From contig JBBIVX010000014.1 in assembly GCA_037439465.1 (NCBI GenBank), positions 7,293-71,292 of the forward strand: a DNA stretch of 64,000 nt, read 5' to 3'. The stretch comes from Hydrogenophilales bacterium. GTDB taxonomy: Bacteria; Pseudomonadota; Gammaproteobacteria; Burkholderiales; Thiobacillaceae. The notes beneath the pieces were generated by a model. It searched no databases. It saw only the letters and a list, made by a program, of their open reading frames with translations, and was not told the origin of the DNA. This document shows, one piece after another, positions 20,629 to 64,000 of this stretch. The position numbers were made by a program, and so were the translations under genes. Numbering within the stretch: the stretch's first letter is position 1; each line of letters opens with the position of its first letter.

Positions 20629-20644
20629 TTGGTCTCGGCCTTTA

Positions 20645-25591
<4,947 letters not shown>

Positions 25592-25649
25592 TTCCCATCC
25601 TTTTTGATAAGCACCAGATTCTGCAAATCCTGTCGCCGCGTCCAGTGTT

Positions 25650-42959: not shown

Positions 42960-43981
<1,022 letters not shown>

Positions 43982-43982
<1 letters not shown>

Positions 43983-45347: not shown

Positions 45348-46106
45348 CTAATCGCCGAACCGATGTCGCCACCGATACCACACCACACCCAGCCATTCAT
45401 GGCAGGCGAAATAGCTATCCTGTAGTCCGGAAGCGCTCGGCACAAAGCTGAAAGGGTCAATCCCGCCTTGATGATAGCCGGTTCCAGCGGGTACAACCAC
45501 CATGCCGAGGCGTTCGAATTCGGGCACAGACCTGGCCAAATGCCAGGCATGGGTCACCAGGTAGATACGCCGGATCCCGGACGCGCGCAGCATGGCTACC
45601 GAATTGCGGGCATTCTCCAGAGTCGTCGTCGAGGTCTCTTCCAGCCACGCCGCAGTCAATCCATATTCCTGCTGCAAGGCCGCCTGCATGAGCCGCGCCT
45701 CCGATCCACCGCGGCCTTCCGGATCGCCCCCCGCAAGCAGGATGGGCTTGTGCAGCCTGCGCGCCAGCCACGCGCCATAACGCAGCCTCTCCAGGGTGAT
45801 CGCTTTCAGGGTATCGCCGCCATACTCCGGCGCGGCAAAGACGCGCCCGCCGGCCAGTATGACGACCGCCTCGGCCTCGCTCCCGTGCAGCACCGGCGGC
45901 AGCGGCATCAGTGTCCTGAGCAGGAAACCGCTGACGACGGGAGTGGCCAGCAGCATCAACCCGGCCAGCGCCACCCCCACCAAGGCACGCCCCAACCGCC
46001 CGCGACGACGCGCCAGCCACAAACCGAAAAGGCCCAACAACAAGAGGCTGAACGGCGGCAACAGGAGTGCGGCAAGGAGATTACTCGACAGATAGATCAG
46101 AGACAT
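45348..46106 (-). CDS. YdcF/DUF218 family (ElyC/SanA-like) membrane-anchored protein
   Basis: 252 aa. N-terminal TM helices, then AVVILAGG...RLRYGAWLARR...ILLAGG...TTTLENA...LVTHAWHLARS. Confidence 0.75.
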   Translation of the reverse strand: MSLIYLSSNLLAALLLPPFSLLLLGLFGLWLARRRGRLGRALVGVALAGLMLLATPVVSGFLLRTLMPLPPVLHGSEAEAVVILAGGRVFAAPEYGGDTLKAITLERLRYGAWLARRLHKPILLAGGDPEGRGGSEARLMQAALQQEYGLTAAWLEETSTTTLENARNSVAMLRASGIRRIYLVTHAWHLARSVPEFERLGMVVVPAGTGYHQGGIDPFSFVPSASGLQDSYFACHEWLGVVWYRWRHRFGD

Positions 46107-49332: not shown

Positions 49333-49334
49333 GG

Positions 49335-50645
49335 TCACGGATACTGCCTGATCCGCTCGCGCAGGCGAACGCCCGCGGGTCGCATCGATGCGGTGAGGCG
49401 TTCCAGCTCCATCACCTCCTGGGCGTGGTCTTGGCGATACCTCGCTTCCTGCGCGCGCCCGGCAGCGATCTGCGCCTCGATGTTGTCGGGGCCGAGTGGC
49501 ACGCCGAAGCCGGCCGGAGCTTCGGGCCGGGCAAAGACCCGCGCCAGCACCCGGCCACCCAGCTCGCCCTTGAAATGCCCCGCCTCCCAGTACCCATGCA
49601 TGCGCGTCCGGCGGTCGCCTCTGGCCGGTACGGTCTCGGTGGTCAAGGCGTCGAAGCCACTGAAGTCCCACAGCGCAAAGGCCGGACCGCCGGCGGCGCG
49701 GGTCTCCTCGGCGACATGCTGCACGACCGCCCGCTTCCACACCTCGAAGGCCGGCCAATGGCCGGTGAGGCGGATGATCTCCAGCAAGTGGGCGTGATAG
49801 GGGTAGATGACCAGATGGAGCGCGATGCCGTGCCGGCGGCACAGACGCAGCACCTGGTCAAGGTCATCCAGTGCCGGCGAGGTACCTCCCGCCGTGTCGA
49901 AGATGTCCCGCGGCCGCCGCAGATAGGCCTTGATGTTTTCCAGGTCCCGCTGCCGGAATACTGCCCAGTAGCCCTCGTCCGCGGTGATTTTCAGATAATC
50001 GCGCATCGGGTTGAAGCCCAGCGGGGTCAGATCGGCGGCATAGGGATTACCCTGGTTGACCAGGGTGCCCAGCGAATCCATGAAGGCCCCCAAAGTCAGG
50101 GTGGCCTCGGCATAGTCGCGCACCTGTCGCAGCACCCGCCTGGGGTTGCGCTCACCATCGGCATTGACGAGCAGGCGCTCGCCCTCGGGCCCGGACGAGC
50201 CGGCGCGGCGTGGCGCCCCCGCGTCCACCAGAAAATCCATGAAGTCGATGCCCCACACGGCCACGACCGGCTTGCGCGCGCCCGCGCCCGCACCGTTTGC
50301 CAGGACATGCCGGAGATAGCGCAGCGTGGTCGCCGGGCCGGTTCCCGGCAGGGCCAGGTTGAACACCGGCCGCACCTCGGCCGGCCAGGCCGGGTGTTCG
50401 GGATCGAAGCCGACCTCGGCGCGCGAATTGCCCAGGATCAGGGCGCGCGGGTTCACCCGCAGCACCTGATAGGCCTTCACTGTCGCCCCATGCGCCCCAG
50501 CCGCAGGCTTGACGGCGTTGAAGCCCGGCGCCTCCACCCGCCGCACCAGGCCATAGGGGTCGACGACCAGGTTGAAGCCCGCCACCGCCAACGCCAGGCC
50601 GGCGGTCAACGTCAACCAGAGGGCGAGATAGGAGCGCATGGGCAT
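49335..50645 (-). CDS. Membrane-anchored hypothetical protein immediately downstream of the MBOAT gene (possible acyl-transfer partner)
   Basis: About 436 aa from MPMRSYLALWLTLTAGLALAVAGFNLVVDPYG. The earlier ORF-track start overlaps the MBOAT gene. No motif recognised with confidence. The role is inferred from position only. Confidence 0.5.
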   Translation of the reverse strand: MPMRSYLALWLTLTAGLALAVAGFNLVVDPYGLVRRVEAPGFNAVKPAAGAHGATVKAYQVLRVNPRALILGNSRAEVGFDPEHPAWPAEVRPVFNLALPGTGPATTLRYLRHVLANGAGAGARKPVVAVWGIDFMDFLVDAGAPRRAGSSGPEGERLLVNADGERNPRRVLRQVRDYAEATLTLGAFMDSLGTLVNQGNPYAADLTPLGFNPMRDYLKITADEGYWAVFRQRDLENIKAYLRRPRDIFDTAGGTSPALDDLDQVLRLCRRHGIALHLVIYPYHAHLLEIIRLTGHWPAFEVWKRAVVQHVAEETRAAGGPAFALWDFSGFDALTTETVPARGDRRTRMHGYWEAGHFKGELGGRVLARVFARPEAPAGFGVPLGPDNIEAQIAAGRAQEARYRQDHAQEVMELERLTASMRPAGVRLRERIRQYP

Positions 50646-50671
50646 CAGGTAATGGTCAATCACCCCATCCC

Positions 50672-52225
50672 CTAAAACTGGAAATACAGGAATTCGCTCG
50701 GCCGGCTCAGCGACAGCAGGCCGCAGGCGAGGACCACCGCCATCGCCACCGCCCACCCCCGGCCGGCCGACCAGGCGAGGCGCGTGCCGGTGGATTCGTC
50801 ACAACCACCGAGCGCCGGTTTGAAACGCCCCATGATCTGCTGGCTGTTAGGCGCCAGAAACACTACCGGCAAGAGCGCCAGCACCCAGACGTAAGTCATC
50901 ATGAAATTCTGGCCGCCGCCGGGCGTGAAGGCCACGCCCATGCCGCCCAGCCACCCGCCGACCGGGCCCAAGCGCAGGGCGATGGCCTCCGGCAGGGCAA
51001 TGCCGTTCCTGCCGAGCATGCTGCCCAGGATGGCCAGCGCCGCGTCCAGACTGGTTGCCCGGAAGAACACCCAGCCCACCACCACCGCCAGAAAGGTCAG
51101 TGCCGCCCCCAGCAGCCGTCCGCCCGGCGACGAGCTGGCCAGATCGTGTCCCAGCCTTTTGCGTACTCCCTGCCAGGCGTGGTGGATCACCAGATACAGC
51201 CCATGCAGCCCGCCCCAGATGACGAAGGTCCAGCCCGCGCCGTGCCACAAGCCACCCAGCAGCATGGTTGCCATCAGGTTCAGATAGCGGCGGGCGGGGC
51301 CCTTGCGGTTGCCGCCCAGGGGGATGTAGAGATAATCGCGCAGGAAACGGGACAGGGTCATGTGCCAGCGACGCCAGAAATCGGTGATGCTGACCGCCTT
51401 GTAGGGAGAATTGAAATTGAGCGGCAGGCGCACGCCGATCATGCAGGACAGGCCGATGGCCATGTCAGAGTAGCCGGAGAAATCGAAATACAGTTGCAAG
51501 GTATAGGCCAGCACCCCGCCCCAGGCCTGAAAAAACGTCAGCGCCTCGCCCGCTCCCGCGGCCGCGAATACCGGTGCCGCATAAGGCGCCACACCGTCCG
51601 CCAGCACCACTTTCTTGAACAACCCGATGGCAAAGATCGTCAGGCCGACGGTGAAGAATTCAGGGCTGAAGCGATAGGTCGCGGCCTGGCCGAACTGAGG
51701 CATCATCTCCTTGTGATGCAGCACCGGTCCGGCGATCAGGTGCGGGAAATAGGTGACGAACAAACCATAGTGGATGAAGTCGAATTCCTTCGCCTCGCCG
51801 CGCGCCGCGTCCACCAGAAAGGCGATCTGGGTGAAGGTAAAGAAGGAGATGCCCAGCGGCAGGATGATCGTCGCCAAGTCCAAACTGGCGCCCAGCGCAA
51901 TATTGAGGCTACCGATGAAAAAGTTGGCATACTTGTAATAGCCCAGCAGAGCCAGGTCAGCGGTCACCCCCAAGGCCAGCAACCGCCGCCGCCGGGGCGA
52001 GCCGATGTCATGGCCACGCGCCAGGCCATAGCCGACCAGATAGTTGAAGACGACGGAAGCGAGCAGCAGGCCCACATAGGCCGGGTTCCACCAGCCATAG
52101 AAAAACAGCGAGCCGGCGGTCAGCCAGGTCGCGGCCAGACGATGACTGTAGTGCCCAAGACGAAAAAAAACGAACAGCAGAACCGGCATGAAAAGGAATA
52201 AAAACTCGACCGAATTAAACAGCAT
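50672..52225 (-). CDS. MBOAT-family membrane O-acyltransferase (AlgI/DltB-like)
   Basis: 517 aa. MLFNSVEFLFLFMPV, FYGWWNP, SITDFWRRWHMTLSRFLRDYLYIPLGGNR, GGLWHGAGWTF. Confidence 0.9.
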   Translation of the reverse strand: MLFNSVEFLFLFMPVLLFVFFRLGHYSHRLAATWLTAGSLFFYGWWNPAYVGLLLASVVFNYLVGYGLARGHDIGSPRRRRLLALGVTADLALLGYYKYANFFIGSLNIALGASLDLATIILPLGISFFTFTQIAFLVDAARGEAKEFDFIHYGLFVTYFPHLIAGPVLHHKEMMPQFGQAATYRFSPEFFTVGLTIFAIGLFKKVVLADGVAPYAAPVFAAAGAGEALTFFQAWGGVLAYTLQLYFDFSGYSDMAIGLSCMIGVRLPLNFNSPYKAVSITDFWRRWHMTLSRFLRDYLYIPLGGNRKGPARRYLNLMATMLLGGLWHGAGWTFVIWGGLHGLYLVIHHAWQGVRKRLGHDLASSSPGGRLLGAALTFLAVVVGWVFFRATSLDAALAILGSMLGRNGIALPEAIALRLGPVGGWLGGMGVAFTPGGGQNFMMTYVWVLALLPVVFLAPNSQQIMGRFKPALGGCDESTGTRLAWSAGRGWAVAMAVVLACGLLSLSRPSEFLYFQF

Positions 52226-52500
52226 GTCCCCTGGCCCTCAAATACTCTCCGCCCGGCAATGGCCGCCCGTACCAAGGTGGCGAATCACCGCTCCGGCCGT
52301 CTCCCGGATACATGGTCTGCGACCCCCTTTTTCGAGTTTTCGGAAATTGTCGCCGTATTGCCAACGAGTTTCCGCAAGAAGCGAACACAATTTGTCTCGC
52401 CGTAAAATAACCATGAATCCGTTCCATAATGCGGCCGCTACAACATCTCACTCTGGCATTGCGGCGCATGGTCACAATGCAGAACGCTTATAAGGCAAGC

Positions 52501-53991
52501 ATGAGTCTCGGTCAAAGCATACGCAGCGGCGCAAAATGGCTTGCCTTCGGCAAGATCGGCAACCGCTTCATGGAGTTCGCTTTCGGTGTGGTCCTGGCCC
52601 GGCTGTTGGTCCCCGCGGACTTCGGCATGATCGCCACCATCAGCGTCTTTACCGGCTTTGTCGGCATGTTCACTGCTGGCGGCATGGGGCAGTCGCTGAT
52701 CCGCGCCAAACAAGCCGACGAGGACGATTTCACCGCCGTGTTCACCCTGCAACTGGCCATGGGCGCCGTGGTTTATATCGGTTTCTACCTGGCCGGCCCA
52801 TGGATTGCCCGGCTATTCGATGACCCCCTCTATTCCGACCTCATCCGCGTCTCGGCACTGAGTTTTCTGCTGCGCCCTTTCCTGGTAATGCGCACGGCCT
52901 GGCTGAACCGGGAGATGAACTTCAAGAGCCGCACCCTGGTGGAGGTCGTAAACGGGCTGTTCACCGGCGTAGCCTCCGCCATCATGGCCTTTGCCGGTCT
53001 GGGGGTGTGGAGCCTTACGCTCTCCGGGCTGCTGGGCAGCCTCTTGCAAAATCTCTGGCTGGCCCGGCTGACTCCCTTGCGGCTACGCCTCAACCCCAAC
53101 TGGGCCGTCATGCGCCGCCATACCGCCTACGGCGCCAAGATCGTGGCCAACGATTTCGTGAACTACCTCGGCAAGGAAGGCAAAAGTCTGGTCATCAGCA
53201 AGCTGGCCGGGCCGGCCCTGCTCGGGCTGTTCAACAAGGCGGAGAGCCTCGCCCGGCTGCCCAACCAGTTATTGATGTCGCCCACCATGGAGCCCCTGTT
53301 CCGGGCCATGGGCAAAACCCAGGAGGACCTGGACCAGACCAAGTACCTCTTCTACCGGGCCATTGCCCTGCTGATGGTGTACACCACACCGCTCTATGTG
53401 ATCCTCTGGTGGAGCGCGGAACCCTTCATCGGCGTGGTCTATGGCGAGAAGTGGATCGCCGCCGCCGCGCCCATGCGCATCCTCGTCTTGATGGGGGTCT
53501 TTCTCAACGTGATGCTGCCAAGCTCCGTAGTGTTGGCGGCGCAGAACCGCCTGGGCCGGGAAATGTTGGCCCAGTCCATCAATCTGCCCATTGTCCTCGC
53601 CGCCTGCGTGCTGGGTTTGCAGGGCTGGGGATTGCCGGGGGCGGCCTGGGGCCTGCTCGCGAGCCAAGTGCTGCTCACCGCCCATTTCTATTGGTTCGTG
53701 CGCCACACCCTGCCCACCCGCGCCAGCGACCTCGTGCGCGCCGCCGCGCCGGGACTCACCCTCAGCGCCCTATTGGGCCTGTTTCTTTTTCTGCTGGATT
53801 GGAAAATCGGCGACTGGCGCCAGACCATGCCGGCCCTGTATCTCATCGCCATGGGGCTGTCGGGCGGAGCGCTCTATGCGGCGCTGTTCCTGTTCCTGCC
53901 CATCAAGTCCCTGGAAGCGGAAGCCGGCCGCTGGCGCCGACAACTCGGCAACGGCTGGTCCGCCCTGCGCAAGGTCCTGAGGCAGACATGA
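52501..53991 (+). CDS. Polysaccharide/oligosaccharide flippase, Wzx-like (MOP/PST family)
   Basis: About 496 aa and polytopic. SIRSGAKWLAFGKIGNRFMEFAFGVVLARLL. Start chosen for an AAGG Shine-Dalgarno candidate 7 nt upstream. Alternatives at 52477 and 52429. Confidence 0.8.
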   Translation: MSLGQSIRSGAKWLAFGKIGNRFMEFAFGVVLARLLVPADFGMIATISVFTGFVGMFTAGGMGQSLIRAKQADEDDFTAVFTLQLAMGAVVYIGFYLAGPWIARLFDDPLYSDLIRVSALSFLLRPFLVMRTAWLNREMNFKSRTLVEVVNGLFTGVASAIMAFAGLGVWSLTLSGLLGSLLQNLWLARLTPLRLRLNPNWAVMRRHTAYGAKIVANDFVNYLGKEGKSLVISKLAGPALLGLFNKAESLARLPNQLLMSPTMEPLFRAMGKTQEDLDQTKYLFYRAIALLMVYTTPLYVILWWSAEPFIGVVYGEKWIAAAAPMRILVLMGVFLNVMLPSSVVLAAQNRLGREMLAQSINLPIVLAACVLGLQGWGLPGAAWGLLASQVLLTAHFYWFVRHTLPTRASDLVRAAAPGLTLSALLGLFLFLLDWKIGDWRQTMPALYLIAMGLSGGALYAALFLFLPIKSLEAEAGRWRRQLGNGWSALRKVLRQT

Positions 53992-54043: not shown

Positions 54044-56062
54044 GTGAAACCGACCCCCGCCAGAATCCTCATTTTCGCTCTGCTGACTGTGACGGCGCTG
54101 TTCGCCTACTCGTTACGCGGCGACCTCTCCGCCCTTTCCCAGCGCCTGCTATCCCAGGAGCGCAGCAAGTTCGAGGCTGCCCCCTTTCCCTACCGGAAGC
54201 TGACCTATCTCTATGACATGGGGGTGGTGGATGCCAACGGTGACGGACAGCTCGACCTGTACACCGCCAATCACAACTACCGCCAGGTACTGCTGTTGGC
54301 CGATGGGCGAGGCGGCTTCCATGATGTGCTGAGCGCGTGGGGACTGGACCAAAGCCGTGCGCTACCAGGTTCGGAACAGGCGCGCGAGGCGCCACAACTG
54401 GACCGCCCAGGGTTGTATATCTACTGGCAGGGCGATGTCCTCCACCTGGTGGCGCACCGCACCGAAGGGTTGGCGCCGATACAAGGCGCCATCCGGCTGT
54501 ACAATACGGTGGAAATCGTTGGCAGGGAAGGATTCGATGCCGACGTCAGCACCACACCCTCATCAACGCCGGGCGGCATCGCCGAGACCCTGCTGTCATT
54601 CAAGAGCGCCTCGCCCGGCCATTTGCGGCTCTATCTCTCCACCCGCGGCGCGCCGGTGCACTTCGATATCGATGCGCCTTGGGCGGCCGACCATGTCTAC
54701 GTAGGCGCCCAGCGCGTTACCCCGGCGGCACCGCAGCATTTCGAGCTGGCCCTGCTGGATCGGCACGCCCTCACCTGGGCCGATTACAACGACGACGGAC
54801 AACTGGATGTCTTCATCAACCGGGGCGCCCTGGGCGGCACCCTGCGGCGTTTTCCCGCACAGGTGCGACAAGGCGTCGGCGACGAGCTGCTGCTCAGCGA
54901 AGGCCCCGGCCGCTTTGCCGATCAGGCGCGCGCACTGGGCATCGAGAAGAAAGACTGCTCCGGGCGTCACGCCAGATGGGTGGACTTCGACCGCGACGGC
55001 CGCCTCGATCTGTACATCAATTGCCAAGACCGCGGCAAGGTGGCGGGAAGTTATTCCAAACAGTTCTACCGGCAGGAGCCGGATCACCGGCTGAGCGATA
55101 TCGCCGCGGCGGTCGGACTGGCCTTGCCGGAGCATCAGATCGTAGACCTGGTCTGGTTCGACGTGGATGGCGATGGCTGGGTGGACCTCTTTACGCATGA
55201 GGACACCGGCTATTACGTCTACAGAAATCGTCAGGGCCGTTTCGAGCGCAGTTTCGTCGCCCGAGGCCCGTTTCACCGCGCAGACGTAGTGGGGCTCACC
55301 GGCGAGACCACCGATTATTGGCAATTCGACGGCAAGCTGAGCGTGGCCGACTTCGATGCGGATGGCGACCTGGACGTCTTCATGGCCTCCAAAAAGGGCA
55401 ATGGTCTTTTGATCAACGACGGTGGCCGGTTCAAGTACGTGCCACCCGCCACCCTGGGCCTGCCGCGCGAGTCGGTGGCCGCCCAATGGGTGGATTACGA
55501 CAACGACGGCCGCATGGACCTACACACCGTGCCCCAGGGTCTGTACCGGCAGGGCGACAAATCGCATTTCGTGGCGACAGGCATGTTCCGCCTGCTGGAC
55601 AACAAGTACCAGGCGGCCATCATCAACTGGTTCGACCGCGACAACGACGGCCGGCTCGATCTCGTCATGGCCCTGCAAGACAACGCCACCCTGTGGCGCT
55701 GGTGGGAAAAACCGTTCAAGCACAATGACGTGAAGGGCGAGGATGACCGCTTTGACTGGGCCATCCAGAGTTACCGCAACATCGGCCCCGGCGGCCACTG
55801 GCTGCAAGTCGCGCTGCAGGGCCAGCCAGGCAACCGTCAGGCCATCGGTGCGCAGGTTACGGTCACCACCCAGGCTGGCCGCCAGACCGCCCAGGTCGGC
55901 GCTCACGACGGGGCCTACTCCTCCCAGGGGCACTACCGTTTGTATTTTGGTCTGGGTCCGGCCACGCACGCCAGACTGCAAATCCAATGGCCCGACGGCA
56001 AGATTCAAGAGATCGGCGACGTCGCCGCCGACCGGCTGTTGCCCATTGCCTACCCGAAATGA
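54044..56062 (+). CDS. FG-GAP/VCBS-repeat protein with C-terminal ASPIC/UnbV domain (CRTAC1 family)
   Basis: 672 aa with a GTG start and an AAAGGA Shine-Dalgarno candidate. N-terminal anchor. At least seven D-x-D/N-x-D-G-x-x-D repeats (DANGDGQLDLY, DYNDDGQLDVF, DFDRDGRLDLY, DVDGDGWVDLF, DFDADGDLDVF, DYDNDGRMDLH, DRDNDGRLDLV). Tail AIGAQVTV...YSSQGHYRLYFGLG. Confidence 0.85.
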   Translation: MKPTPARILIFALLTVTALFAYSLRGDLSALSQRLLSQERSKFEAAPFPYRKLTYLYDMGVVDANGDGQLDLYTANHNYRQVLLLADGRGGFHDVLSAWGLDQSRALPGSEQAREAPQLDRPGLYIYWQGDVLHLVAHRTEGLAPIQGAIRLYNTVEIVGREGFDADVSTTPSSTPGGIAETLLSFKSASPGHLRLYLSTRGAPVHFDIDAPWAADHVYVGAQRVTPAAPQHFELALLDRHALTWADYNDDGQLDVFINRGALGGTLRRFPAQVRQGVGDELLLSEGPGRFADQARALGIEKKDCSGRHARWVDFDRDGRLDLYINCQDRGKVAGSYSKQFYRQEPDHRLSDIAAAVGLALPEHQIVDLVWFDVDGDGWVDLFTHEDTGYYVYRNRQGRFERSFVARGPFHRADVVGLTGETTDYWQFDGKLSVADFDADGDLDVFMASKKGNGLLINDGGRFKYVPPATLGLPRESVAAQWVDYDNDGRMDLHTVPQGLYRQGDKSHFVATGMFRLLDNKYQAAIINWFDRDNDGRLDLVMALQDNATLWRWWEKPFKHNDVKGEDDRFDWAIQSYRNIGPGGHWLQVALQGQPGNRQAIGAQVTVTTQAGRQTAQVGAHDGAYSSQGHYRLYFGLGPATHARLQIQWPDGKIQEIGDVAADRLLPIAYPK

Positions 56063-58074
56063 ACACCCAGCCGCTCATGGACACGCTGCATCTCACCCTG
56101 GATGAATTGTTCTCGACCTCCGCTGCCCTGCCCGCCGCACAGGATCGCCAAGTTTGGGGAATGCGGCGCCACACCGCTTCACCGGCCACGGGGGTCAGCG
56201 TGCTCATCGATCGTTTCGCCGACCGTCCCGATGCCCAGTGCATCTTTCTGCGTACCGATGCGACGGCCGCCAAGGTCCTCCGTCTCGGCGTGCAGGGGGG
56301 CCATAAAGTGGAAGCCGCCGCCGGGAGCGGCTGGCGGCTGAGTCCCAGCGGCCAAGAAGGACCCTCCTATTGGCTGCCGCAACCGCCCATATTGCGTACC
56401 CAGGACAAGCAAGGCCATATCCTCAACGAGCGCGCGGCCGCGCTCACCCATCTGGATGTCTCCGCCGATGGATTGGCAGTAAACCTCGATCTACCCGCCG
56501 ACGGCAGTCTTGACTGGATCATCTGGCGGTTCGGACCGGGGCAGGGTGACTTGTCCACAGGACTGGAATCGTCCCTGGCACTGGAGCGCCAGAGTTATTT
56601 TCTGTGGGGATCCAAAGTCAACGTGCGCCTGCCCGCCGGCCTTTATCATTTCCTGATCCATGGTCGTATCTATACCGACGATTTCGTCTGGCCGCGAAAC
56701 TGGAAATTCCTCTCTGAACTTGACGCTTACGGCCTGTTCAAAGCCCTCACCGGCCTCGAAGTCGCCACTGGCAAGGCGCTCTATGGCCTGCTCCGGCGGC
56801 AGGTGCTCTATTCCGTTCTCGACGCCCAGGCCGAGGATGGCGGCTGGCGGCACGGTGAATGGACGGACCTCATGGAGACGCACCTGCGCTTGCACAACGC
56901 CGCCATGCTGTTGCTGGAGGCGGGCCTGGAGGAATCGGGCGACGTTACAATCCGGACCTCTCTGGAGCGGGCGGCGGCCTTTCTCGCCAAACACACCGAC
57001 CGCACGGACCTGGGCGCCTGGTTCCTGCATGACTCCCTGGAGACAAGCGCCGAAAACATGGAGATCATGCGGAAGCAGACCAGGACACCCTGGATACCCA
57101 GCCGCACCTTGGGCAAGTCCCCCTGCACCAAGCTGATTCTGAACACGCACCTGGACGCCATCGTCACCATGGACCGTTATCGCGCGCTCACCGATGACCG
57201 CCAATATGACGCCTTGTTAGACTCGGCCCGTGCCGCCGCCAGCAAGATTCTGGCGCTCAGGCCGGCCGAGCCCCTCTATCGCTTCCTCTACAAATTGATC
57301 GCGCTCACCCTGCTGCCCAGAGCGCGGGGCATCGCCCTGCCCTGGCCACTGCGCGCCCTCAAGCGCCTGACATGGATGTACCTGTGGCCCAACATGCATC
57401 GGGTCAAGCGCCTCTGGCCGCGTCTGGTCATGCCCTGTGGGCTTATCGAGCGGCACATCGCCCCCCTGCACTTCGACCTCAATTACCACCCGGTCAACGT
57501 GATGGATGTCGTCCGTTACTGGCGCCGTTTCCCAGGGGAAAATCTTTCGCGCCTGATCGACAACGCACTGCGGCCGGTGCAAACCCTGGATCTGCTGCAA
57601 TACTGGACCGAGGCCACGAACCGACAGTTCGCCATCGTCGTGTGGGCCGAGGCCCTGTACCATTTGTGCCTGTTGAAAACCGACGGCGACCTGCGCAGGC
57701 AACTCGCACAATCCATGCTGTGTGCGGCACACAACGAATTGGGCCTGCCTGCCGCGCTGCTGGGCGCCGATGCCGAATCGGCACCTCTGCAAGACCGCCA
57801 TCCCTGCCCGTCGCCCACCGATCCCCGCCTGCGGGTGGCCAACCTGTCGCACGGCACATGGCGGGAAATTCTGGTAGTCAACCCTGGCGATGTTAAGATC
57901 GAACTCGCCTGGGAGGCCAACCACCCAGGCGAGGGAGTCATATGGTTCGACGAGACGGGCCAGCGTTTGAGTGACGATGGCCTGGCGCGCGGCATCACCG
58001 CCGGGGGCTGGGTGCTGGGCAGGGCAGGGCGGTTCGGACCGACAATAATGGAAAACATGGAGATACACGCATGA
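56059..58074 (+). CDS. Hypothetical protein with possible alpha/alpha-toroid fold; weak resemblance to the D-glucuronyl C5-epimerase C-terminal domain
   Basis: 671 aa. ATGA overlap with the upstream gene. Blocks GGWRHGEWTDLMETHLRLHNAAMLLLEAG, AWFLHDSLE, KLILNTHLDAIVTMDRY and LNYHPVNVMDVV line up loosely with remembered GLCE blocks (GWYSAMAQGQAIS; WYEEY; VLNGFMYSLIGLYD; WDYHTTHINQL). Confidence 0.5.
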   Translation: MNTQPLMDTLHLTLDELFSTSAALPAAQDRQVWGMRRHTASPATGVSVLIDRFADRPDAQCIFLRTDATAAKVLRLGVQGGHKVEAAAGSGWRLSPSGQEGPSYWLPQPPILRTQDKQGHILNERAAALTHLDVSADGLAVNLDLPADGSLDWIIWRFGPGQGDLSTGLESSLALERQSYFLWGSKVNVRLPAGLYHFLIHGRIYTDDFVWPRNWKFLSELDAYGLFKALTGLEVATGKALYGLLRRQVLYSVLDAQAEDGGWRHGEWTDLMETHLRLHNAAMLLLEAGLEESGDVTIRTSLERAAAFLAKHTDRTDLGAWFLHDSLETSAENMEIMRKQTRTPWIPSRTLGKSPCTKLILNTHLDAIVTMDRYRALTDDRQYDALLDSARAAASKILALRPAEPLYRFLYKLIALTLLPRARGIALPWPLRALKRLTWMYLWPNMHRVKRLWPRLVMPCGLIERHIAPLHFDLNYHPVNVMDVVRYWRRFPGENLSRLIDNALRPVQTLDLLQYWTEATNRQFAIVVWAEALYHLCLLKTDGDLRRQLAQSMLCAAHNELGLPAALLGADAESAPLQDRHPCPSPTDPRLRVANLSHGTWREILVVNPGDVKIELAWEANHPGEGVIWFDETGQRLSDDGLARGITAGGWVLGRAGRFGPTIMENMEIHA

Positions 58075-58841
58075 TCATTTCCCATTCCAGGAAATTCATC
58101 TTCGTCAAATCGCTGAAGACGGCAGGCACCAGCATCGAGGCGGCCCTATCCAACTATTGCAGCGGTAACGACGTAGTCGTGCCGATCGGCGATTTCGGCC
58201 ACAACCGCGATGCGAAGGGCGGGATCGTGCATCGCGGCATGAACGCCGACGAGGTCTACCGCATGATCGGCCAGCATGTTGATGCCCCCACGATCAGGGA
58301 CCGGGAGCCGGCGGAGGTGTGGAACGGCTACTTCAAGTTCAGCATCACCCGCAATCCCTGGGACCGTGCCCTGTCCTATTTTTTCTGGGACCGGCGCAAG
58401 GATCCGGCCATGAAGCCGCGCAAGCGCTTCTACCATTATCTGGGCGTACCCCTGGATGAGTTTGGCGCGGTGAAAGGCCTTTTCACCGATTTCATCCGGA
58501 ACAAGACCCTCACAGGCGACGACCGCTTCTACGTCAACGACGGCGAGAAACGCTACCGCGTCCCGGCCGAGGGCTTCCTGGAAAACAACGACCGCTTTTA
58601 TGTCGAGGACGGCCGCTTATGCGTCGATTTCGTCATCCGCTATGAACGCCTGCAGGAGGATTTCCATACCGTGTGCGAGCGGGTGGGCATACATCCGACC
58701 CCTCAACTTCCGCAGTTGAAAACCGGCATTCGTATGGGGGGACATCATTACACCGAATATTACGACGACCGCGCCCGTGACATCGTTGGCGAGCTGCACG
58801 AGAACGACATCCGCCTGCTCGGCTATCAATTCGGCCGCTGA
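58071..58841 (+). CDS. Sulfotransferase family 2-like protein
   Basis: 256 aa. PAPS 5'-phosphosulfate loop FVKSLKTAGTSIE. 3'-phosphate motif TRNPWDRALSYFFW. C-terminal YERLQEDF...YYDD pattern typical of bacterial carbohydrate sulfotransferases. Confidence 0.8.
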   Translation: MIISHSRKFIFVKSLKTAGTSIEAALSNYCSGNDVVVPIGDFGHNRDAKGGIVHRGMNADEVYRMIGQHVDAPTIRDREPAEVWNGYFKFSITRNPWDRALSYFFWDRRKDPAMKPRKRFYHYLGVPLDEFGAVKGLFTDFIRNKTLTGDDRFYVNDGEKRYRVPAEGFLENNDRFYVEDGRLCVDFVIRYERLQEDFHTVCERVGIHPTPQLPQLKTGIRMGGHHYTEYYDDRARDIVGELHENDIRLLGYQFGR

Positions 58842-58871
58842 CCTCACCCGCCAACTCTCCTGGACAACGAC

Positions 58872-59747
58872 ATGACCCAACTACTCCGCTCGGCAGTCAT
58901 CGGTCTGGCGGGCGGCCTGCTTCTGGCCCTGCCCGCCGCAGCCCTGGCCCTGGCGTCGGACACCTCCCTGGCCACGGCGATCTCCCTGGCGCTGGCCTTC
59001 GCCGGCGGTATTACGCTTTTACACTATTGGAAAACCCTACAAGCGCAGATGCACTACCAGGGGCTTGCACAACTTCACCATCGGCTCGACCGCATCGCCG
59101 AGCAGATCGCAGAAACCCAGGGTCTGGTGCAGCTCACCCCCTACGAGCATCCCTATCCCATGCCCTTCGGCGGTGGCTGGGCGCTCACCGCCGATGCTGC
59201 CGCGCTGCTTGCGCGCGAGGTCGCGCTGAACCGGCCGCACATCATCGTCGAGCTGGGTTCGGGCGTGTCCTCCGTGCTCCTCGGCCGCCTGCTCAAGGAA
59301 ATGGGCGAGGGCAAGGTCTACTCCCTGGATCACGACGCCAACTGGGCAGAACAGACCCGCCGGCATGTGCGCGCCAGTGGCATTGCAGAATACGTCGAAG
59401 TCCTGGATGCCCCCCTGTCCAGGCAGCGCTTCGCCGACCACGAGTATGACTGGTACACCGTACCCGAAGCGGTGCGTCGTCTGCCTGCCATCGATCTGCT
59501 CATCGTCGATGGTCCACCCGCGGCCCTCGAACCCGAGGGCACGCCGCGCTACCCAGCCCTGCCGGCCTTTCTCGCCCAGCTCTCGCCACAGGCGGTCATC
59601 TACGTGGACGACGCCAAACGTCCGCAGGAACAGGCCATGCTCGCACGCTGGCTGCAAGAAAATCCCGCCTTCGAACAGCGTATGCACGACACCGTGCCGG
59701 GCACCTGTCTGCTCCGACGGGACATCTACCGCGCGAACCAACCATGA
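58872..59747 (+). CDS. Membrane-anchored class I SAM-dependent methyltransferase-like protein
   Basis: 291 aa. Two N-terminal TM helices. Motif I IVELGSGVSSVLLG. LLIVDGP plus YVDDA, as in Methyltransf_24-type O-methyltransferases. Confidence 0.6.
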   Translation: MTQLLRSAVIGLAGGLLLALPAAALALASDTSLATAISLALAFAGGITLLHYWKTLQAQMHYQGLAQLHHRLDRIAEQIAETQGLVQLTPYEHPYPMPFGGGWALTADAAALLAREVALNRPHIIVELGSGVSSVLLGRLLKEMGEGKVYSLDHDANWAEQTRRHVRASGIAEYVEVLDAPLSRQRFADHEYDWYTVPEAVRRLPAIDLLIVDGPPAALEPEGTPRYPALPAFLAQLSPQAVIYVDDAKRPQEQAMLARWLQENPAFEQRMHDTVPGTCLLRRDIYRANQP

Positions 59748-61048
59748 AGATATTCGGTATCGGCCTCTCCAAGACCGGCACCAGCAGCCTGGCCCACGCC
59801 CTGGAGATATTGGGCTACAAGACGCGGGACTATCCGGGCATCGAACGCTATGCGCCCGGCGACATCACCTGCGTCGACCCGGCCCTGTTGCGGGACAACG
59901 ACGCCCTCACCGATACGCCCATCCCCAGCTACTATCGAGAGCTCGACCGGGCCTATCCGGGGTCGAAGTTCATCCTCACTGTGCGGGCGCGGGAGGGGTG
60001 GCTCAAGTCCTGCCAAAAGCAGTTCACCGAGAAACTCGCCGCGAAGCAGAACGAGGCCCACAACCGTCTGTTCATGGACCTCTACGGCACCACGGTATTC
60101 GATACGGTGAAGTTCGGCACCGGCTATGAGCGCTTTGTCGCAAGGGTGTTGGAGTATTTCAAGGACCGCCCCGATGACCTGCTGATCCTCGACGTCACCG
60201 GCGGCGAGGGCTGGGAAAAACTCTGTCCCTTCCTCGGCAAGCCAATCCCCGATCTACCTTTCCCCAAGGCCAACGTAACGCGCATCCGTTGGATGGACAT
60301 CAACGCCTTGGTCCGCCTGGCCAAAGAAGCCGGCGCGGTGCTCCTGCGAGCACATGTCGCTCTGCAACCGGATGCCCGACGCCTCGCCTGGCACGAACGT
60401 ATTGCCACGCTACCGCGCCGGGTCATCTACAGGCTCAAAGGCGGTCGGCCCCATGTCCTGCGGGCTGCCACCGAAACCGCCCACGGCCTGCTGGCGCAGG
60501 GTCTGACTCGCCTCAACCCGGACATTCCTGTCATTACCAGCCGCCACCATGACGTGCCCTATGCGGAGCGATGCAAGTGGAACCACTTCTGGCTGGTGGA
60601 CGCCTTGGATGGGGAGGCGGGATTTGCCGCCGATGCGGGGGAATACACCATAGACATCGCCCTGATCGAGGATGGGCAGCCCATCGCCGGCGTGGTCTAC
60701 GCGCCTCTGTCCGGCACCGCCTACTACGCCATGGTGGGCAAGGGCGTCTACAGATCTGTGGGGGAAGGTCCGCCAATGCGACTGGGTCAGGCCGCCGCCC
60801 TGCCGACGACCACAGCCACGCCGGCCGCCGCGTCCGCCAGCAAGGCGCTGGCCCTGTGCCGGCGGCTGGAGCCGGGCATGGCCCCGGCCCCCGATCTGTC
60901 CGGCAGCATGGAATGGCACAGCGCCGCCGCCCAGGCCGTGGCCCGTCTGGCCGGACGCCGTATCGTCGTCGGCCAGGACGGTCAGGAACTCGGGTACAAC
61001 AAGGTCGACTGGGCCAACCCTGGCATTCGGGTCGCAGAGTCGCCATGA
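59744..61048 (+). CDS. Fusion protein: N-terminal sulfotransferase domain plus C-terminal CysQ/inositol-monophosphatase-like (PAP phosphatase-like) domain with altered metal-binding residues
   Basis: 434 aa. N-terminal KIFGIGLSKTGTSSLAHAL P-loop (Sulfotransfer_4 type). The C-terminal LNPDIPVITSRHHD...WLVDALDGEAGF...YTIDIALIEDGQPIAGVVYAP...MEWHSAAAQAV is colinear with E. coli CysQ LTPDVPVLSEED...WLVDPLDGTKEF...FTVNIALIDHGKPILGVVYAP...IWDTAAGHAV. Confidence 0.75.
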   Translation: MKIFGIGLSKTGTSSLAHALEILGYKTRDYPGIERYAPGDITCVDPALLRDNDALTDTPIPSYYRELDRAYPGSKFILTVRAREGWLKSCQKQFTEKLAAKQNEAHNRLFMDLYGTTVFDTVKFGTGYERFVARVLEYFKDRPDDLLILDVTGGEGWEKLCPFLGKPIPDLPFPKANVTRIRWMDINALVRLAKEAGAVLLRAHVALQPDARRLAWHERIATLPRRVIYRLKGGRPHVLRAATETAHGLLAQGLTRLNPDIPVITSRHHDVPYAERCKWNHFWLVDALDGEAGFAADAGEYTIDIALIEDGQPIAGVVYAPLSGTAYYAMVGKGVYRSVGEGPPMRLGQAAALPTTTATPAAASASKALALCRRLEPGMAPAPDLSGSMEWHSAAAQAVARLAGRRIVVGQDGQELGYNKVDWANPGIRVAESP

Positions 61049-62151
61049 ACCCCGATAAAAGTATTTACGCCCGTTTCACCGGCCCGGAGATATTTCTGGA
61101 ACAGGGGCGGCTGCTCTTCTCTCTGTTGCATGTCTTCGCCAATTCTGGATACCGGATCAGCCTGTTCAATTACCTGGGCGACAAGCCGCTGGAAAAATAC
61201 GGGCAGATGTTCCACACCCTTGCTGGCCTGACATTGACCGACAGCCCGCCCGCGGCCACTGCGGACAGCTACTACCTCTACGACCAAGCCGACAGCGCCC
61301 TGGCCAAACTCCCCTGGCGGAAGCAGATCCAAGTCCGCTTCGATTTGTTCTCCCCATTCTGGTTTTCCAACCCCATCATCATGCCGTTTCCCATGCACCC
61401 CATGCAGTCTGGCGTCACGCATGACGACCTGGAGGCGCTCCGGACCAGCGAACGCAGGGTCAAGGTCTTCTTTTCCGGCGACACCGAGCACTATCGGCGC
61501 GTCTGGATCCGCTATCCCAAGCCCAAGCTGCCGCGGGAGGCGATAATCCGCGCCGTCATGGAGCGCCTCGCCGACGACCTCATCCTGCTCGACGATGCCC
61601 TTGATCTGGCCAGGCTATACCGTGCCGGGTACACCAACAAATGTGCCTTCACCGCTTCGAGCGCCGTGCGTATCGAGTTTGCCGACTGGCTACCCACCCT
61701 GGCGCGGGCGGATTTTTTCCTCAGCCCGCCGGGTATCGTCATGCCTATGTGCCACAACATCACCGAGGCCATGGCGGTGGGCACCATCCCCATCACCAAC
61801 TACCCTGAGTGGCTCGATCCGCCCCTGCGGCCTGGGCACGATTGCCTGGTCTTCGACGATGAGGACGACCTTATCGCCACGCTCAAAACGGCCTTGGCGA
61901 TGGAAACCGGGCAGATCGCGACGATGCGGGCCCATGTGCTGGATTACTACGAAACCCATCTCAGACCCGAAGGCTTCGTCGGCCGCATCGAATCCAGTCC
62001 GGACAGGAATCTGCCCATCCTGATGTACACGGAGCGCAACGTGGCAAAACACGCGGCCAGACTCAACCGCCACGCCATCCTCATGCAGGGCACCACCCGT
62101 CCGCGGGCGGGTGGCGGCTTCAAGCGGATGCTGGCCGCTTACCTGGGATGA
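61045..62151 (+). CDS. Exostosin-like (GT47-type) or related GT-B glycosyltransferase
   Basis: 368 aa from an ATG that overlaps the upstream stop (ATGA). VFFSGD...ADFFLSPPGIVMPMCHNITEAMAVGTIPI...CLVFDDEDDL resembles the exostosin signature FCL-P-G...R..EA...GCIPV. Confidence 0.5.
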   Translation: MNPDKSIYARFTGPEIFLEQGRLLFSLLHVFANSGYRISLFNYLGDKPLEKYGQMFHTLAGLTLTDSPPAATADSYYLYDQADSALAKLPWRKQIQVRFDLFSPFWFSNPIIMPFPMHPMQSGVTHDDLEALRTSERRVKVFFSGDTEHYRRVWIRYPKPKLPREAIIRAVMERLADDLILLDDALDLARLYRAGYTNKCAFTASSAVRIEFADWLPTLARADFFLSPPGIVMPMCHNITEAMAVGTIPITNYPEWLDPPLRPGHDCLVFDDEDDLIATLKTALAMETGQIATMRAHVLDYYETHLRPEGFVGRIESSPDRNLPILMYTERNVAKHAARLNRHAILMQGTTRPRAGGGFKRMLAAYLG

Positions 62152-62259
62152 CGGCCATGCACGCGGCCAGTCGAATCACCAGTGCGCCGGCGGCGTTATT
62201 GGATAAGTCGGGAAAAGGCGCATTACTTAAATGTAAATGCTCGCGAGGGATCGTCGTCC

Positions 62260-63231
62260 ATGAATGAGACAACCCCGGTCTCCGCTTCGACGGAGCGCCC
62301 CCTCATCTCGGTGGTCATGCCGTGCTACAACGCCGCACCCTATGTGGCGGAAGCGGTGGAGTCCGCGCTTGGCCAAAGTCATGGCAACGTCGAACTCTTC
62401 GTGGTGGACGACGGTTCCACCGATGACTCGGACGCGATCCTCGCCCGGCTGGCCGAAGCCCACCCCGGTCGTCTGCATTTACTCTACACGGCCCACCTCG
62501 GGCCTTACCCTGCCCGCAACGAAGCCCTCAGGAAGGTGCGCGGCGAATTCATCGCCTTCCTGGATGCCGACGACTGGTGGCTGCCCGACGCTCTGGAGAA
62601 GCTCTATGCGGCCCTCGACCAGCATGGCGCTGACATCGCCTATTGCGGCTGGCAGAACGTCGGCGAGGGCATCCACTCTGCGCCCCATGTGCCGCCGGCC
62701 TACGAGGAGGAAGACGTCGTCGCCCATTTCGTCCGCACCTGCCCCTGGCCCATACATGCCGCACTCATCCGGCGCACCATCGTGGAACGCGTGGGTGGCT
62801 TCTCCGAGCGGTGCTACGCCTCCATGGATTATGACTTCTGGCTGCGCGCCCTGGCCCTCACCCGGCGCATCAAGCGGGTCCCCGAAGTCCTCGCCTTCTA
62901 TCGCTGGCACAACCAGGGGCAGATCTCCGCGGTGAAATGGCGCCAGGTGCTCGATGCCCTCGATGCCCAGCAGGCCTTCATCCGCCAGAACCCGCAACTG
63001 GTTGCGCATCTATCGGAGGCGCGCCTGGGCGAGCTCACCGAAGGTCAGGTCTTGCAGCAGGCCTACCGCGCCTTCTGGAAGCGCGATCTCGTCTCCGCTC
63101 AGAAGCTGTTTCGCCATGCGGCCAGGAATGGCGCCTATCACCTGCAGGACCTCTTCCATATACTGGCCGCGCTACTCCCCATGCCACTGTTCCAGGGCCT
63201 GGTCATGATCGCCGACTGGAAAAAACTCTGA
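62260..63231 (+). CDS. Family 2 glycosyltransferase
   Basis: 323 aa from MNETTPV. ISVVMPCYNAAPYV, VVDDGSTD, FLDADDWW (DxD). Confidence 0.88.
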   Translation: MNETTPVSASTERPLISVVMPCYNAAPYVAEAVESALGQSHGNVELFVVDDGSTDDSDAILARLAEAHPGRLHLLYTAHLGPYPARNEALRKVRGEFIAFLDADDWWLPDALEKLYAALDQHGADIAYCGWQNVGEGIHSAPHVPPAYEEEDVVAHFVRTCPWPIHAALIRRTIVERVGGFSERCYASMDYDFWLRALALTRRIKRVPEVLAFYRWHNQGQISAVKWRQVLDALDAQQAFIRQNPQLVAHLSEARLGELTEGQVLQQAYRAFWKRDLVSAQKLFRHAARNGAYHLQDLFHILAALLPMPLFQGLVMIADWKKL

Positions 63232-64000
63232 TGGCGGCAACCCGCGTCCCCGTCCTCATGTACCACCGGGTGGGCGCGGCCCACAACGCCTGGGAGGCGC
63301 GCTATGCCATCAGCCCCGCCAACTTTGCCGCCCACATGCAGACCCTGGCGCGCCAGGGCTACCGGGCGGTGCAGATCGACGCGCTGATCGACTGGCTGGA
63401 AGGCGGCCCGTCCCTGCCGGAAGGGGCGATCCTGGTCACCTTCGACGACGGCTTTCGCGGCGTGCGCGAACATGCGCTTCCGGTTTTGGAGCGCATGGGC
63501 TGGCCGTTCACCGTTTTTCTTGTGAGCGATCTGATCGGCGGCGAGGACGTCTGGACCCGCGCCTCGAATCCCGCTGGCGTGACCTATCCCCTGCTCGCTA
63601 TGGACGATATCCGCGACATGCAGCGGCGCGGCGTCAGCTTCCACTCCCACACCCGCAGCCACCCCAGTCTACCCAGCCTGGATGACGCTCAACTGAGGGA
63701 ACAACTGGCCGGCTCGCGCCAGCGGCTGACCGAGCGGCTGGGCGCGGAAGTGCGCTATCTCGCCTACCCCTTTGGCCATGCCGACGAGCGCGTGGCAGCG
63801 GCCACCCAGGCCGCCGGCTATCGCGCGGCCTTCTCCACCCGCTCCGGGTTCAACCGCCGCGATGTCGACAGATTTCAGATCAGGCGCATCGACGTCTTCG
63901 GCACGGACACGCCAGCCATGTTGCTGCGCAAGGTCAGGCTGGGTAGCAACGATGGCCGCCTCATGTACGCCGCGCGTTACTACCTCGGCCGGCTCAAAAG
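63231..64000 (+). CDS. Polysaccharide deacetylase (NodB homology domain), 3' end outside the window
   Basis: Not in the ORF track because no stop is reached. Read by hand: MAATRVPVLMYHRV...ILVTFDDGFRG...FHSHTRSHP...LAYPFG. ATG 63231 shares one nt with the upstream TGA. Confidence 0.85.
   Translation, partial: MAATRVPVLMYHRVGAAHNAWEARYAISPANFAAHMQTLARQGYRAVQIDALIDWLEGGPSLPEGAILVTFDDGFRGVREHALPVLERMGWPFTVFLVSDLIGGEDVWTRASNPAGVTYPLLAMDDIRDMQRRGVSFHSHTRSHPSLPSLDDAQLREQLAGSRQRLTERLGAEVRYLAYPFGHADERVAAATQAAGYRAAFSTRSGFNRRDVDRFQIRRIDVFGTDTPAMLLRKVRLGSNDGRLMYAARYYLGRLK

Follow-up and report, generated by a model that had tools for sequence, protein, structure and literature searches.

The window analysed here, a stretch of 64,000 nucleotides of contig JBBIVX010000014.1 from a Hydrogenophilales bacterium, closes with a string of plus-strand genes that runs from position 52429 to the window end, as judged from the listing of open reading frames (ORFs) and from a gene call based on the GC content at third codon positions (GC3). 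Behind the gene of a Wzx flippase, the string holds eight genes, which encode an FG-GAP/ASPIC protein, a protein of 671 aa, a sulfotransferase, a methyltransferase, a second sulfotransferase fused to a CysQ-like domain, two glycosyltransferases and a polysaccharide deacetylase (Table 1). A preliminary description had taken this set for a mirror of heparan sulfate biosynthesis. All eight genes were found where it had placed them, and Pfam backs six of its eight labels; among these, the family-2-type sulfotransferase, the methyltransferase, the family 2 glycosyltransferase (GT2) and the NodB-type deacetylase each matched their models, and the second sulfotransferase matched both Sulfotransfer_4 and Inositol_P.

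The operon is real and widely conserved among bacteria. Five of the seven gene junctions overlap (four ATGA and one TGATG), in agreement with the mostly overlapping stops and starts seen before, and GC3 lies between 0.73 and 0.83 in all called frames. An identical 10.3-kb Logan contig of a public assembly (L001; handles of this form denote the loci compared) ends inside the window, and the gene calls made on it independently have the same starts. The gene order is kept in independent genomes, at protein identities of 55-87%.

At the head of the eight genes, the FG-GAP/ASPIC protein is an exported beta-propeller protein with a hydrophobic segment at residues 3-26, which is an N-terminal membrane anchor or signal; its gene accompanies the Sulfotransfer_2 gene in related loci. 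At the other end, the gene of the deacetylase of carbohydrate esterase family 4 (CE4) is cut by the window edge about nine codons early, its homologues having 265 aa. The translation contains TFDDG and HSHTRSH, i.e. the Asp-Asp and His-His metal/catalytic motifs, and the model of the PgaB N-terminal domain scored 95 bits, below its cutoff. The scan for hydrophobic (transmembrane) segments detected no signal peptide in this enzyme and no hydrophobic N-terminus in the CE4 enzyme, either sulfotransferase, the 671-aa protein or the GT-B glycosyltransferase.

Table 1. Genes of the operon and of the upstream part of the locus, with the matches on which each label is based
Feature	Coordinates	Strand	Evidence
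FG-GAP/ASPIC protein	54044-56062	+	FG-GAP_3 111.8 bits; UnbV_ASPIC 67.7 bits
671-aa protein	56059-58074	+	No matching Pfam or NCBIfam model
Sulfotransfer_2-type sulfotransferase	58071-58841	+	PF03567 34.9 bits (cutoff 22), profile positions 4-252 of 252
Methyltransferase, class I S-adenosylmethionine-dependent, membrane-anchored	58872-59747	+	Methyltransf_24 48.5 bits; two N-terminal hydrophobic segments
Sulfotransfer_4/CysQ-like fusion	59744-61048	+	PF17784 121.7 bits (cutoff 22.8); PF00459 (Inositol_P) 57.6 bits
368-aa GT-B glycosyltransferase	61045-62151	+	Glyco_trans_1_2 20 bits and RXYLT1_C 15.5 bits, both below cutoff
GT2 glycosyltransferase	62260-63231	+	Glycos_transf_2 129.2 bits; C-terminal hydrophobic segment; also called in L001
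CE4 (NodB/PgaB-type) polysaccharide deacetylase	63231->64000	+	Polysacc_deac_1 (PF01522) 90.5 bits (cutoff 23.1)
Wzx/MOP-family flippase, first gene of the plus-strand operon	52429-53991	+	Polysacc_synt_3 226.9 bits; MOP flippase model 176.9 bits
MBOAT membrane O-acyltransferase (AlgI/DltB-like)	50672-52225	-	MBOAT 127.9 bits; DltB 173.7 bits, below cutoff; seven hydrophobic segments
446-aa protein without family match	49335-50675	-	No Pfam or NCBIfam match; GC3 0.8-0.9 in frame; one hydrophobic segment
Right-handed beta-helix protein (start approximate)	48028-49329	-	Beta_helix 34 bits; weak Pect-lyase_RHGA_epim
Asparagine-synthase-like amidotransferase	46242-47951	+	Asn_synthase 248.8 bits
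DUF218/ElyC-like envelope protein	45348-46106	-	DUF218 91.8 bits; weak ElyC; two N-terminal hydrophobic segments
TviB-like UDP-GlcNAc C6-dehydrogenase	43982-45283	-	Three UDPG_MGDP_dh domains; TviB 486 bits (cutoff 592)
TviC-like UDP-GlcNAcA C4-epimerase (start approximate, frame open to 44183)	42960-43985	-	Epimerase 201 bits

Sulfotransferases, CysQ-like domain and GT-B enzyme

The two sulfotransferases were checked for their family models and for the residues that bind 3'-phosphoadenosine 5'-phosphosulfate (PAPS): both models were passed and both loops are intact. In the Sulfotransfer_2 protein, KTAGTS (residues 16-21) and RNPWDRxxS (residues 94-102), the 5'-phosphosulfate-binding (5'-PSB) and 3'-phosphate-binding (3'-PB) motifs, are invariant in 11 homologues. 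The Sulfotransfer_4 domain occupies residues 1-179 of the fusion; its GLSKTGT(S/T)S and TxR...W..S motifs are conserved, and it aligns end to end with the solved sulfotransferases 9kf1 and 8y9p.

The Sulfotransfer_2 protein and its relatives in L003 and L004 also share an insertion of about 25 residues, DDRFYVNDGEKRYRVPAEGFLE, at residues ~150-175. This insertion resembles an internal duplication of the segment NNDRFYVEDGRLCVD that follows it and is absent in eight other homologues.

The CysQ-like domain covers residues ~235-434 of the Sulfotransfer_4 fusion. It scored 117.1 bits with TIGR01331, under the equivalog cutoff of 228.8, and the match to Inositol_P spans profile positions 40-141 of 271 only. 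Its active site was surveyed in an alignment with CysQ (3b8b) and 41 fusion homologues. The DPLDG motif is retained, with D286 and D289 invariant. The position of the catalytic Thr is occupied by E or A in 34 of the 41 sequences, the WD motif has lost its Asp in every one of them (to Gln in 24, His in 12, Glu in 5), and the EE motif mostly reads R-x, its first Glu being Arg in 30. Both domains occur together in all 120 best-scoring fusion homologues listed. The domain thus looks like a catalytically degenerate, conserved pseudo-phosphatase; judged by these residues, it is most likely a non-catalytic module that binds 3'-phosphoadenosine 5'-phosphate (PAP) or PAPS, or a structural one, and is unlikely to be a working PAP phosphatase. 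The Sulfotransfer_4/degenerate-CysQ fusion is an uncharacterised protein family, and no description of a sulfotransferase-CysQ fusion was found in the literature searched.

Adjacent to the fusion gene in every locus that carries both lies the gene of the 368-aa protein, which had been called exostosin-like. This label was not confirmed. The window protein has no match to PF03016 (Exostosin_GT47). Its AlphaFold2 (AF2) model, with a predicted local distance difference test (pLDDT) score of 90.7, has a GT-B fold whose top Foldseek matches are the GT4 enzymes HepE, PglA, PimA and WaaG, with no exostosin structure among the top 50. Weak Pfam matches are spread over 30 members of the family, namely RXYLT1_C (30), Glyco_trans_1_2 (27) and Exostosin_GT47 (21, best E value 9.3e-8). 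The protein is a GT-B glycosyltransferase with a weak, family-level likeness to GT47/RXYLT1.

The 671-aa protein and its remote family link

The 671-aa protein had been credited with a loose similarity to the C-terminal domain of D-glucuronyl C5-epimerase. In a direct comparison this similarity was not recovered. Searches against Pfam, NCBIfam and PDB sequences (phmmer and two PDB profile searches, including one with a homologue profile) gave no match, and C5-epim_C (PF06662) was unmatched at E <= 0.1 by the protein and by any of 34 close homologues. The profile search of PDB sequences with the family returned no entry of the epimerase Glce. The family is large, and none of its at least 575 homologues has a name; invariant residues (His, Asp, Glu, Arg, Lys and Tyr) are numerous.

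A transitive link does exist. A distant homologue in L072 (BLASTP E = 1e-35, 32% identity over 287 aa) passes the C5-epim_C model with 26.4 bits against a cutoff of 23.3, and has the motifs WRHGxWTDLMETH, WFLHDSLET and LNTH in common with the 671-aa protein. Weaker scores were obtained for L075 (18.1 bits) and L073 (13.7 bits), and hhalign, run on A1 against L075 as a test of the link of the 671-aa family, gave a probability of 99.8%. It is therefore defensible, from these alignments, to regard the 671-aa protein as a remote, transitive relative of the D-glucuronyl C5-epimerase family.

In the AF2 model of the protein (pLDDT 89.8, predicted template modelling score, pTM, 0.92), a beta-sandwich at the N-terminus is followed by an (alpha/alpha)6 toroid and, at the C-terminus, by a small beta domain. 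With the whole model, Foldseek returned generic (alpha/alpha)6 enzymes with template modelling (TM) scores of 0.2-0.3, none of which stands out. Glce structures (4pw2, 6hzz and 4pxq) appeared at ranks 39-47, with TM-scores of 0.22-0.28 and E ~8e-4, among many toroid enzymes. Since all TM-scores are low, the whole-model fold search cannot tell an epimerase from a hydrolase, a phosphorylase or a lyase. We considered whether the protein might trim or recycle the glycan, as a glycoside hydrolase, a phosphorylase or a lyase would. The top Foldseek matches are indeed phosphorylases of glycoside hydrolase families GH94 and GH65, hydrolases of families GH52 and GH78 and a polysaccharide lyase, all with the combination of beta-sandwich and (alpha/alpha)6 toroid seen in our model, and the many invariant Asp, Glu and His residues would suit such an enzyme. 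We nevertheless hold this to be fairly unlikely: no match is outstanding at such TM-scores, the protein has no signal peptide, C5-epim_C is its sole family link at the level of sequence, and an (alpha/alpha)6 uronyl C5-epimerase encoded beside sulfating enzymes is known in Halobacterium (PMC12624080). The 671-aa protein, which is predicted to be cytoplasmic because it has no hydrophobic segment, may act on a sugar, the most plausible reaction being the epimerisation of a uronic acid. It belongs to an uncharacterised family of (alpha/alpha)6 proteins of 660 aa.

Related loci and the probable product

The cassette recurs in many Beta- and Gammaproteobacteria: when genomes representative of their species were scanned with the 671-aa family, 80 loci were obtained, from Burkholderiales, Rhodocyclaceae, Thiobacillaceae and Methylococcales. 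Cultured carriers include Thauera mechernichensis TL1, Aromatoleum toluolicum T, Methylomonas lenta, Methylomicrobium sp. wino1 (L012) and Methylotuvimicrobium sp. KM1 (L019); the first two of these strains have the core genes plus Sulfotransfer_3. Linkage was counted over the 47 loci with a length of at least 15 kb and at least 33% identity. Just downstream of the 671-aa gene lie the orthologues of the GT2 gene (44 of 47) and of the CE4 gene (41 of 47), and at least one sulfotransferase was found within 10 kb in 36, queries of Sulfotransfer_1/3 being included in this count. In most loci, the same strand carries a Sulfotransfer_3 orthologue further downstream, at a distance of 5.5-9 kb (about 8 kb as a rule). 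In L083, the closest relative found, whose GT-B protein is 87% identical to that of the window, the deacetylase gene is followed by GT2, methyltransferase, GT2, Sulfotransfer_3 and GT2 genes. This continuation of the operon predicts a third sulfotransferase beyond base 64000; by analogy, the Sulfotransfer_3 counterpart of the window locus would be expected roughly 4-5 kb past that base.

The core comprises Wzx, the 671-aa protein, a glycosyltransferase, the GT2 and CE4 enzymes, additional GT2s and Sulfotransfer_3. The window has two add-on modules, one composed of FG-GAP, Sulfotransfer_2 and Methyltransf_24 and the other of the Sulfotransfer_4/CysQ-like fusion and the GT-B enzyme. Related loci hold four to six glycosyltransferases, methyl- and pyruvyl-transferases and a Wzx or an ABC-transporter route, and no bifunctional GlcA/GlcNAc polymerase was found in them. 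Genes for a pyruvyl transferase, for a membrane protein of the sulfatase family, for Wzy_C or for a Wzm/Wzt transporter are additions seen in other relatives. In L086, a locus that has the sulfotransferase add-on modules without the 671-aa protein, a Wzy_C gene adjoins Wzx on its upstream side; another is next to Wzx in L012. In the latter, a module of the 671-aa protein, Methyltransf_24, WbsX, Sulfotransfer_4/CysQ-like, GT-B, GT2 and CE4 genes lies within a Wzm/Wzt ABC-transporter locus that also encodes a Wzt C-terminal domain, a Wzy_C/DUF5935 protein and another two or three sulfotransferases of the Sulfotransfer_1/3 type. Orthologues of this module and Sulfotransfer_1/3 genes have the same arrangement in L019. 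The Wzm/Wzt setting of these two loci indicates that the cassette is not bound to one export route.

Two relatives contain further polysaccharide-related genes. In L087, a 692-aa protein of the sulfatase/alkaline-phosphatase family (15595-17673) directly follows Sulfotransfer_3 and GT2 and is reminiscent of Agl30 and Agl31, two Halobacterium sulfotransferases with a sulfatase fold. In L043 (Thauera terpenica 58Eu), the region upstream of the core (137-6899) encodes an AMP-ligase, a decarboxylase dependent on pyridoxal phosphate (PLP) and a 1197-aa protein that combines VanZ with a heparinase II/III-like part (DUF4962, Hepar_II_III_C), a second toroid-type polysaccharide enzyme.

Clusters for bacterial sulfated polysaccharides are known for synechan (PMC8205485), in Cobetia (PMC11766843), in Vibrio and, putatively, in Pontiella (PMC7356697). 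The synechan (xss) cluster of Synechocystis PCC 6803, compared here by its description, makes an exopolysaccharide (EPS) of the Wzx/Wzy type and likewise has several glycosyltransferases and more than one sulfotransferase; it belongs to another phylum, and the literature indicates no Glce-like, CE4, CysQ-fusion or FG-GAP protein in it (PMC8205485). The capsule locus of Cobetia marina KMM 1449 contains sulfotransferases with cysN/C, cysD and cysQ, which recalls the cysD-cysNC pair of L018, but it encodes a group III capsule exported by an ABC transporter, and its CysQ is separate and presumably active, whereas the domain found here is fused and has lost residues (PMC11766843). For Pontiella sulfatireligans F21, whose EPS reacts as sulfated glycosaminoglycan (GAG)-like material, a cluster has been proposed by computation in which GT2/GT4 enzymes are combined with a TuaB/Wzx-type flippase, a methyltransferase and a PF13469 sulfotransferase; the last is its single sulfotransferase, no Glce-like, CE4 or CysQ-like parts are reported, and the phylum is again a different one (PMC7356697).

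For an epimerase encoded beside two sulfating enzymes, the best functional analogue is Agl30-32 of Halobacterium salinarum, where an (alpha/alpha)6 GlcA C5-epimerase is adjacent to two enzymes, one membrane-bound and one cytosolic, that sulfate the same oligosaccharide, and where sulfation needs the epimerase (PMC11980604, PMC12624080). The pathway proposed here would follow the same logic. The archaeal epimerase, Agl32, has 372 aa and belongs to the AglQ family. The archaeal system, however, serves protein N-glycosylation, and Agl30 and Agl31 have the sulfatase/alkaline-phosphatase fold and not that of PAPS sulfotransferases. The animal enzymes NDST, GLCE and HS2ST also combine a deacetylase, sulfotransferases and a uronyl epimerase, the last with a transitive pfam06662 link to the possible epimerase here; in the present locus, an EXT-type polymerase is lacking, deacetylase and sulfotransferase are separate proteins, and assembly uses Wzx and a lipid carrier. 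Prokaryotic pfam06662 proteins have been found in the O-antigen clusters of serotypes that contain iduronic acid (IdoA) (PMC3068255).

Taken together, we consider it probable that the locus encodes a PAPS-dependent pathway for a sulfated glycan, namely a decorated acidic surface heteropolysaccharide made by a Wzx-dependent route, and that the region analysed is its front half. On the gene content, the product is most likely a sulfated, methylated and partly de-acetylated surface polysaccharide. The many glycosyltransferases and extra decorations point to a complex heteropolysaccharide rather than to a GAG-type disaccharide polymer. A lipid-linked repeat unit would be assembled at the cytoplasmic face by the GT-B and GT2 enzymes and by further GT2s expected past base 64000. 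This unit, including a sugar derived from UDP-N-acetylgalactosaminuronic acid (UDP-GalNAcA), would be tailored in the cytoplasm, because signal peptides are absent and PAPS is cytoplasmic. The CE4 enzyme would deacetylate it, putatively at nitrogen; the Sulfotransfer_2 enzyme and the Sulfotransfer_4 fusion (two or three sulfotransferases in all) would sulfate it, and the membrane-anchored Methyltransf_24 enzyme would methylate it. The 671-aa toroid protein might modify one of its sugars, possibly by C5-epimerisation of a uronate. Wzx would flip the finished unit, after which the FG-GAP/ASPIC and beta-helix proteins, together with the MBOAT system, would act outside the cytoplasm.

Several points weigh against this pathway. 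No PAPS-synthesis genes (cysD, cysN, cysC) are present within the 64-kb window, and among about 87 related loci a scan for the APS-kinase signature and tblastn with CysD/CysNC placed such genes nearby in a single one. This is L018, where cysD (matching 1zun_A with 473 bits) and a cysN/cysC fusion (matching 1zun_B with 498 bits and having an APS-kinase domain) lie at 3635-6492, inside the cluster, and immediately precede Wzx and the 671-aa homologue. Genes for Wzy, for a priming phosphoglycosyl transferase and for chain-length or export proteins (PCP/OPX) were not found within the window either; they may lie beyond base 64000. What the 671-aa protein does, which sugars are the acceptors and which positions are sulfated has been assigned by inference. 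Finally, the nearest solved relatives of the Sulfotransfer_4 domain, SgdX2 and the oxamniquine sulfotransferase of Schistosoma, are small-molecule enzymes, which would favour an acceptor other than a glycan (a lipid, small molecule or protein), with the sulfotransferases merely encoded beside polysaccharide genes. That explanation is highly improbable, given that the sulfotransferase genes share ATGA junctions with their glycosyltransferase neighbours, that the Sulfotransfer_4 and GT-B genes are adjacent wherever both occur, and that no other biosynthetic genes are nearby.

Could the operon be a true bacterial counterpart of the heparan sulfate pathway, in which a backbone of hexuronic acid (HexA) and N-acetylhexosamine (HexNAc) undergoes N-deacetylation with N-sulfation, C5-epimerisation and O-sulfation? 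Along with a CE4 deacetylase and at least two sulfotransferases, the operon does have a remote relative of the Glce family, and the 671-aa family is accompanied by sulfotransferases in 36 of 47 loci. HS2ST and HS6ST belong to the Pfam family Sulfotransfer_2, and the TviB/TviC-like genes provide a HexNAc-uronic acid. The sulfate reported in sludge and Pontiella polymers is, moreover, mainly N-linked (PMC10483923; PMC7356697). Yet C5-epim_C is matched neither by the 671-aa protein nor by its 34 homologues, and the fold match is non-specific. No polymerase of the EXT, KfiA/C or PmHS type that would make an alternating backbone was recognised, the glycosyltransferases being a GT2 of the ordinary kind and a GT-B enzyme that resembles GT4. 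Related loci, with their 4-6 glycosyltransferases and their methyl- and pyruvyl-transferases, suggest a complex repeat unit, assembly proceeds by Wzx or an ABC transporter and not by a processive synthase, and L086 has the sulfotransferase modules without the 671-aa protein. A heparan-type product therefore appears improbable, and the mirror drawn in the preliminary description, which included an exostosin-like glycosyltransferase, is not demonstrable. Of its proposal that the locus deacetylates, sulfates and epimerises a HexNAc/uronic acid polymer, the sulfotransferases, the CE4 motifs and the UDP-GalNAcA genes stand, the epimerase is reached by a transitive link, and the GAG backbone is unsupported.

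A different question, compatible with the Wzx-dependent sulfated heteropolysaccharide that we favour, is whether the product is an O-antigen of lipopolysaccharide (LPS) or a capsule and not matrix EPS. The Methylomicrobium/Methylotuvimicrobium module next to Wzm/Wzt, with its Wzt C-terminal domain and a Wzy_C/O-antigen-ligase-like gene, the Wzy_C gene upstream of Wzx in L086 and the Pfam06662 proteins of O-antigen clusters such as that of E. coli O112ab, where the O-antigen has IdoA (PMC3068255), are in favour of a sulfated O-antigen or capsule. In Thauera, by contrast, the core is embedded in EPS genes of the exosortase type (AMP-ligase, PLP decarboxylase, Asn-synthase-like), and the window has no WaaL, Wzz or Wzm/Wzt genes; we regard such a product as possible but somewhat unlikely.

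Sulfated GAG-like polymers have been measured repeatedly in wastewater granules, and the authors of these studies call the pathways and sulfotransferases unknown (PMC10483923; PMC7356697). Our literature search found no description of the cassette or of sulfotransferases in Thauera or methanotroph glycans. The cassette is a concrete, conserved candidate gene set in Burkholderiales, Rhodocyclaceae and Thiobacillaceae metagenome-assembled genomes and in Thauera and Aromatoleum, i.e. in sludge lineages. One may speculate further that the sulfated GAG-like and N-sulfated signal of granular sludge, anammox and methanotroph biofilm matrices stems from a widespread system, evolutionarily related to or convergent with the tailoring of heparan sulfate and acting on lipid-linked units, which would consist of a CE4 N-deacetylase, a divergent uronyl epimerase of the Glce superfamily (as a new family of 660 aa) and up to three sulfotransferase families, one with a pseudo-CysQ domain for nucleotide binding; taken as a whole, this idea is unlikely. 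The existence of cultured carriers opens the question to genetics and polymer chemistry. The interest of the locus lies in its breadth, in the culturable strains and in the two uncharacterised protein families.

Upstream genes and the rest of the window

The genes upstream of the operon are bounded by a nuo operon at 42462. The flippase announced upstream of the eight genes was confirmed as the first gene of the operon. The genes for a UDP-HexNAc-uronic acid, also announced as lying just upstream, are present as TviB- and TviC-like genes, although at a distance of 7-9 kb and on the other (minus) strand. The TviB-like protein scored 376 bits with an NDP-sugar dehydrogenase model (cutoff 190), and TviC was the best NCBIfam match of its neighbour, with 503.8 bits, below the equivalog cutoff of 760. 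These enzymes are able to provide UDP-GalNAcA.

For the asparagine-synthase-like protein, the nearest NCBIfam model is the XrtA/PEP-CTERM amidotransferase (232.8 bits, below the cutoff of 816.9). Orthologues with 59-70% identity occur in L015, L018, L036 and L039, and they adjoin Wzx in related clusters. We suppose that this enzyme may amidate a uronic acid.

The MBOAT, 446-aa and beta-helix genes form a unit (48028-52225, minus strand) that runs divergently from Wzx and may serve O-acylation together with a lyase or epimerase function. The 446-aa protein encoded downstream of the MBOAT gene may be a partner of the acyltransferase, and the beta-helix protein is possibly a polysaccharide lyase or epimerase. 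Frame-specific GC3 changes over at ~49300, in the region where the beta-helix gene starts. The possibility that the beta-helix ORF (604 aa) and its upstream neighbour (487 aa), which overlap, form a single frameshifted gene was considered and rejected, frame-specific GC3 indicating two consecutive genes.

The remainder of the window carries genes of other kinds. An rnf-type cluster with RnfB-, C-, D-, G-, E- and A-like genes occupies 16213-26567 on the minus strand and includes, at 20645-25660, a 1671-aa fusion resembling pyruvate:ferredoxin oxidoreductase. A protein with a terminal IPTL-CTERM sorting motif (47 bits) is encoded at 14149-15216, also on the minus strand. Positions 1-12902 are very GC-rich (up to 72%) and contain two giant plus-strand ORFs, of which the longer (2027 aa) has an OmpA domain at residues 617-711 and the shorter (1530 aa) has HEAT repeats, as well as two further ORFs without family match; the frames overlap by ~440 nt, which leaves the gene boundaries uncertain.

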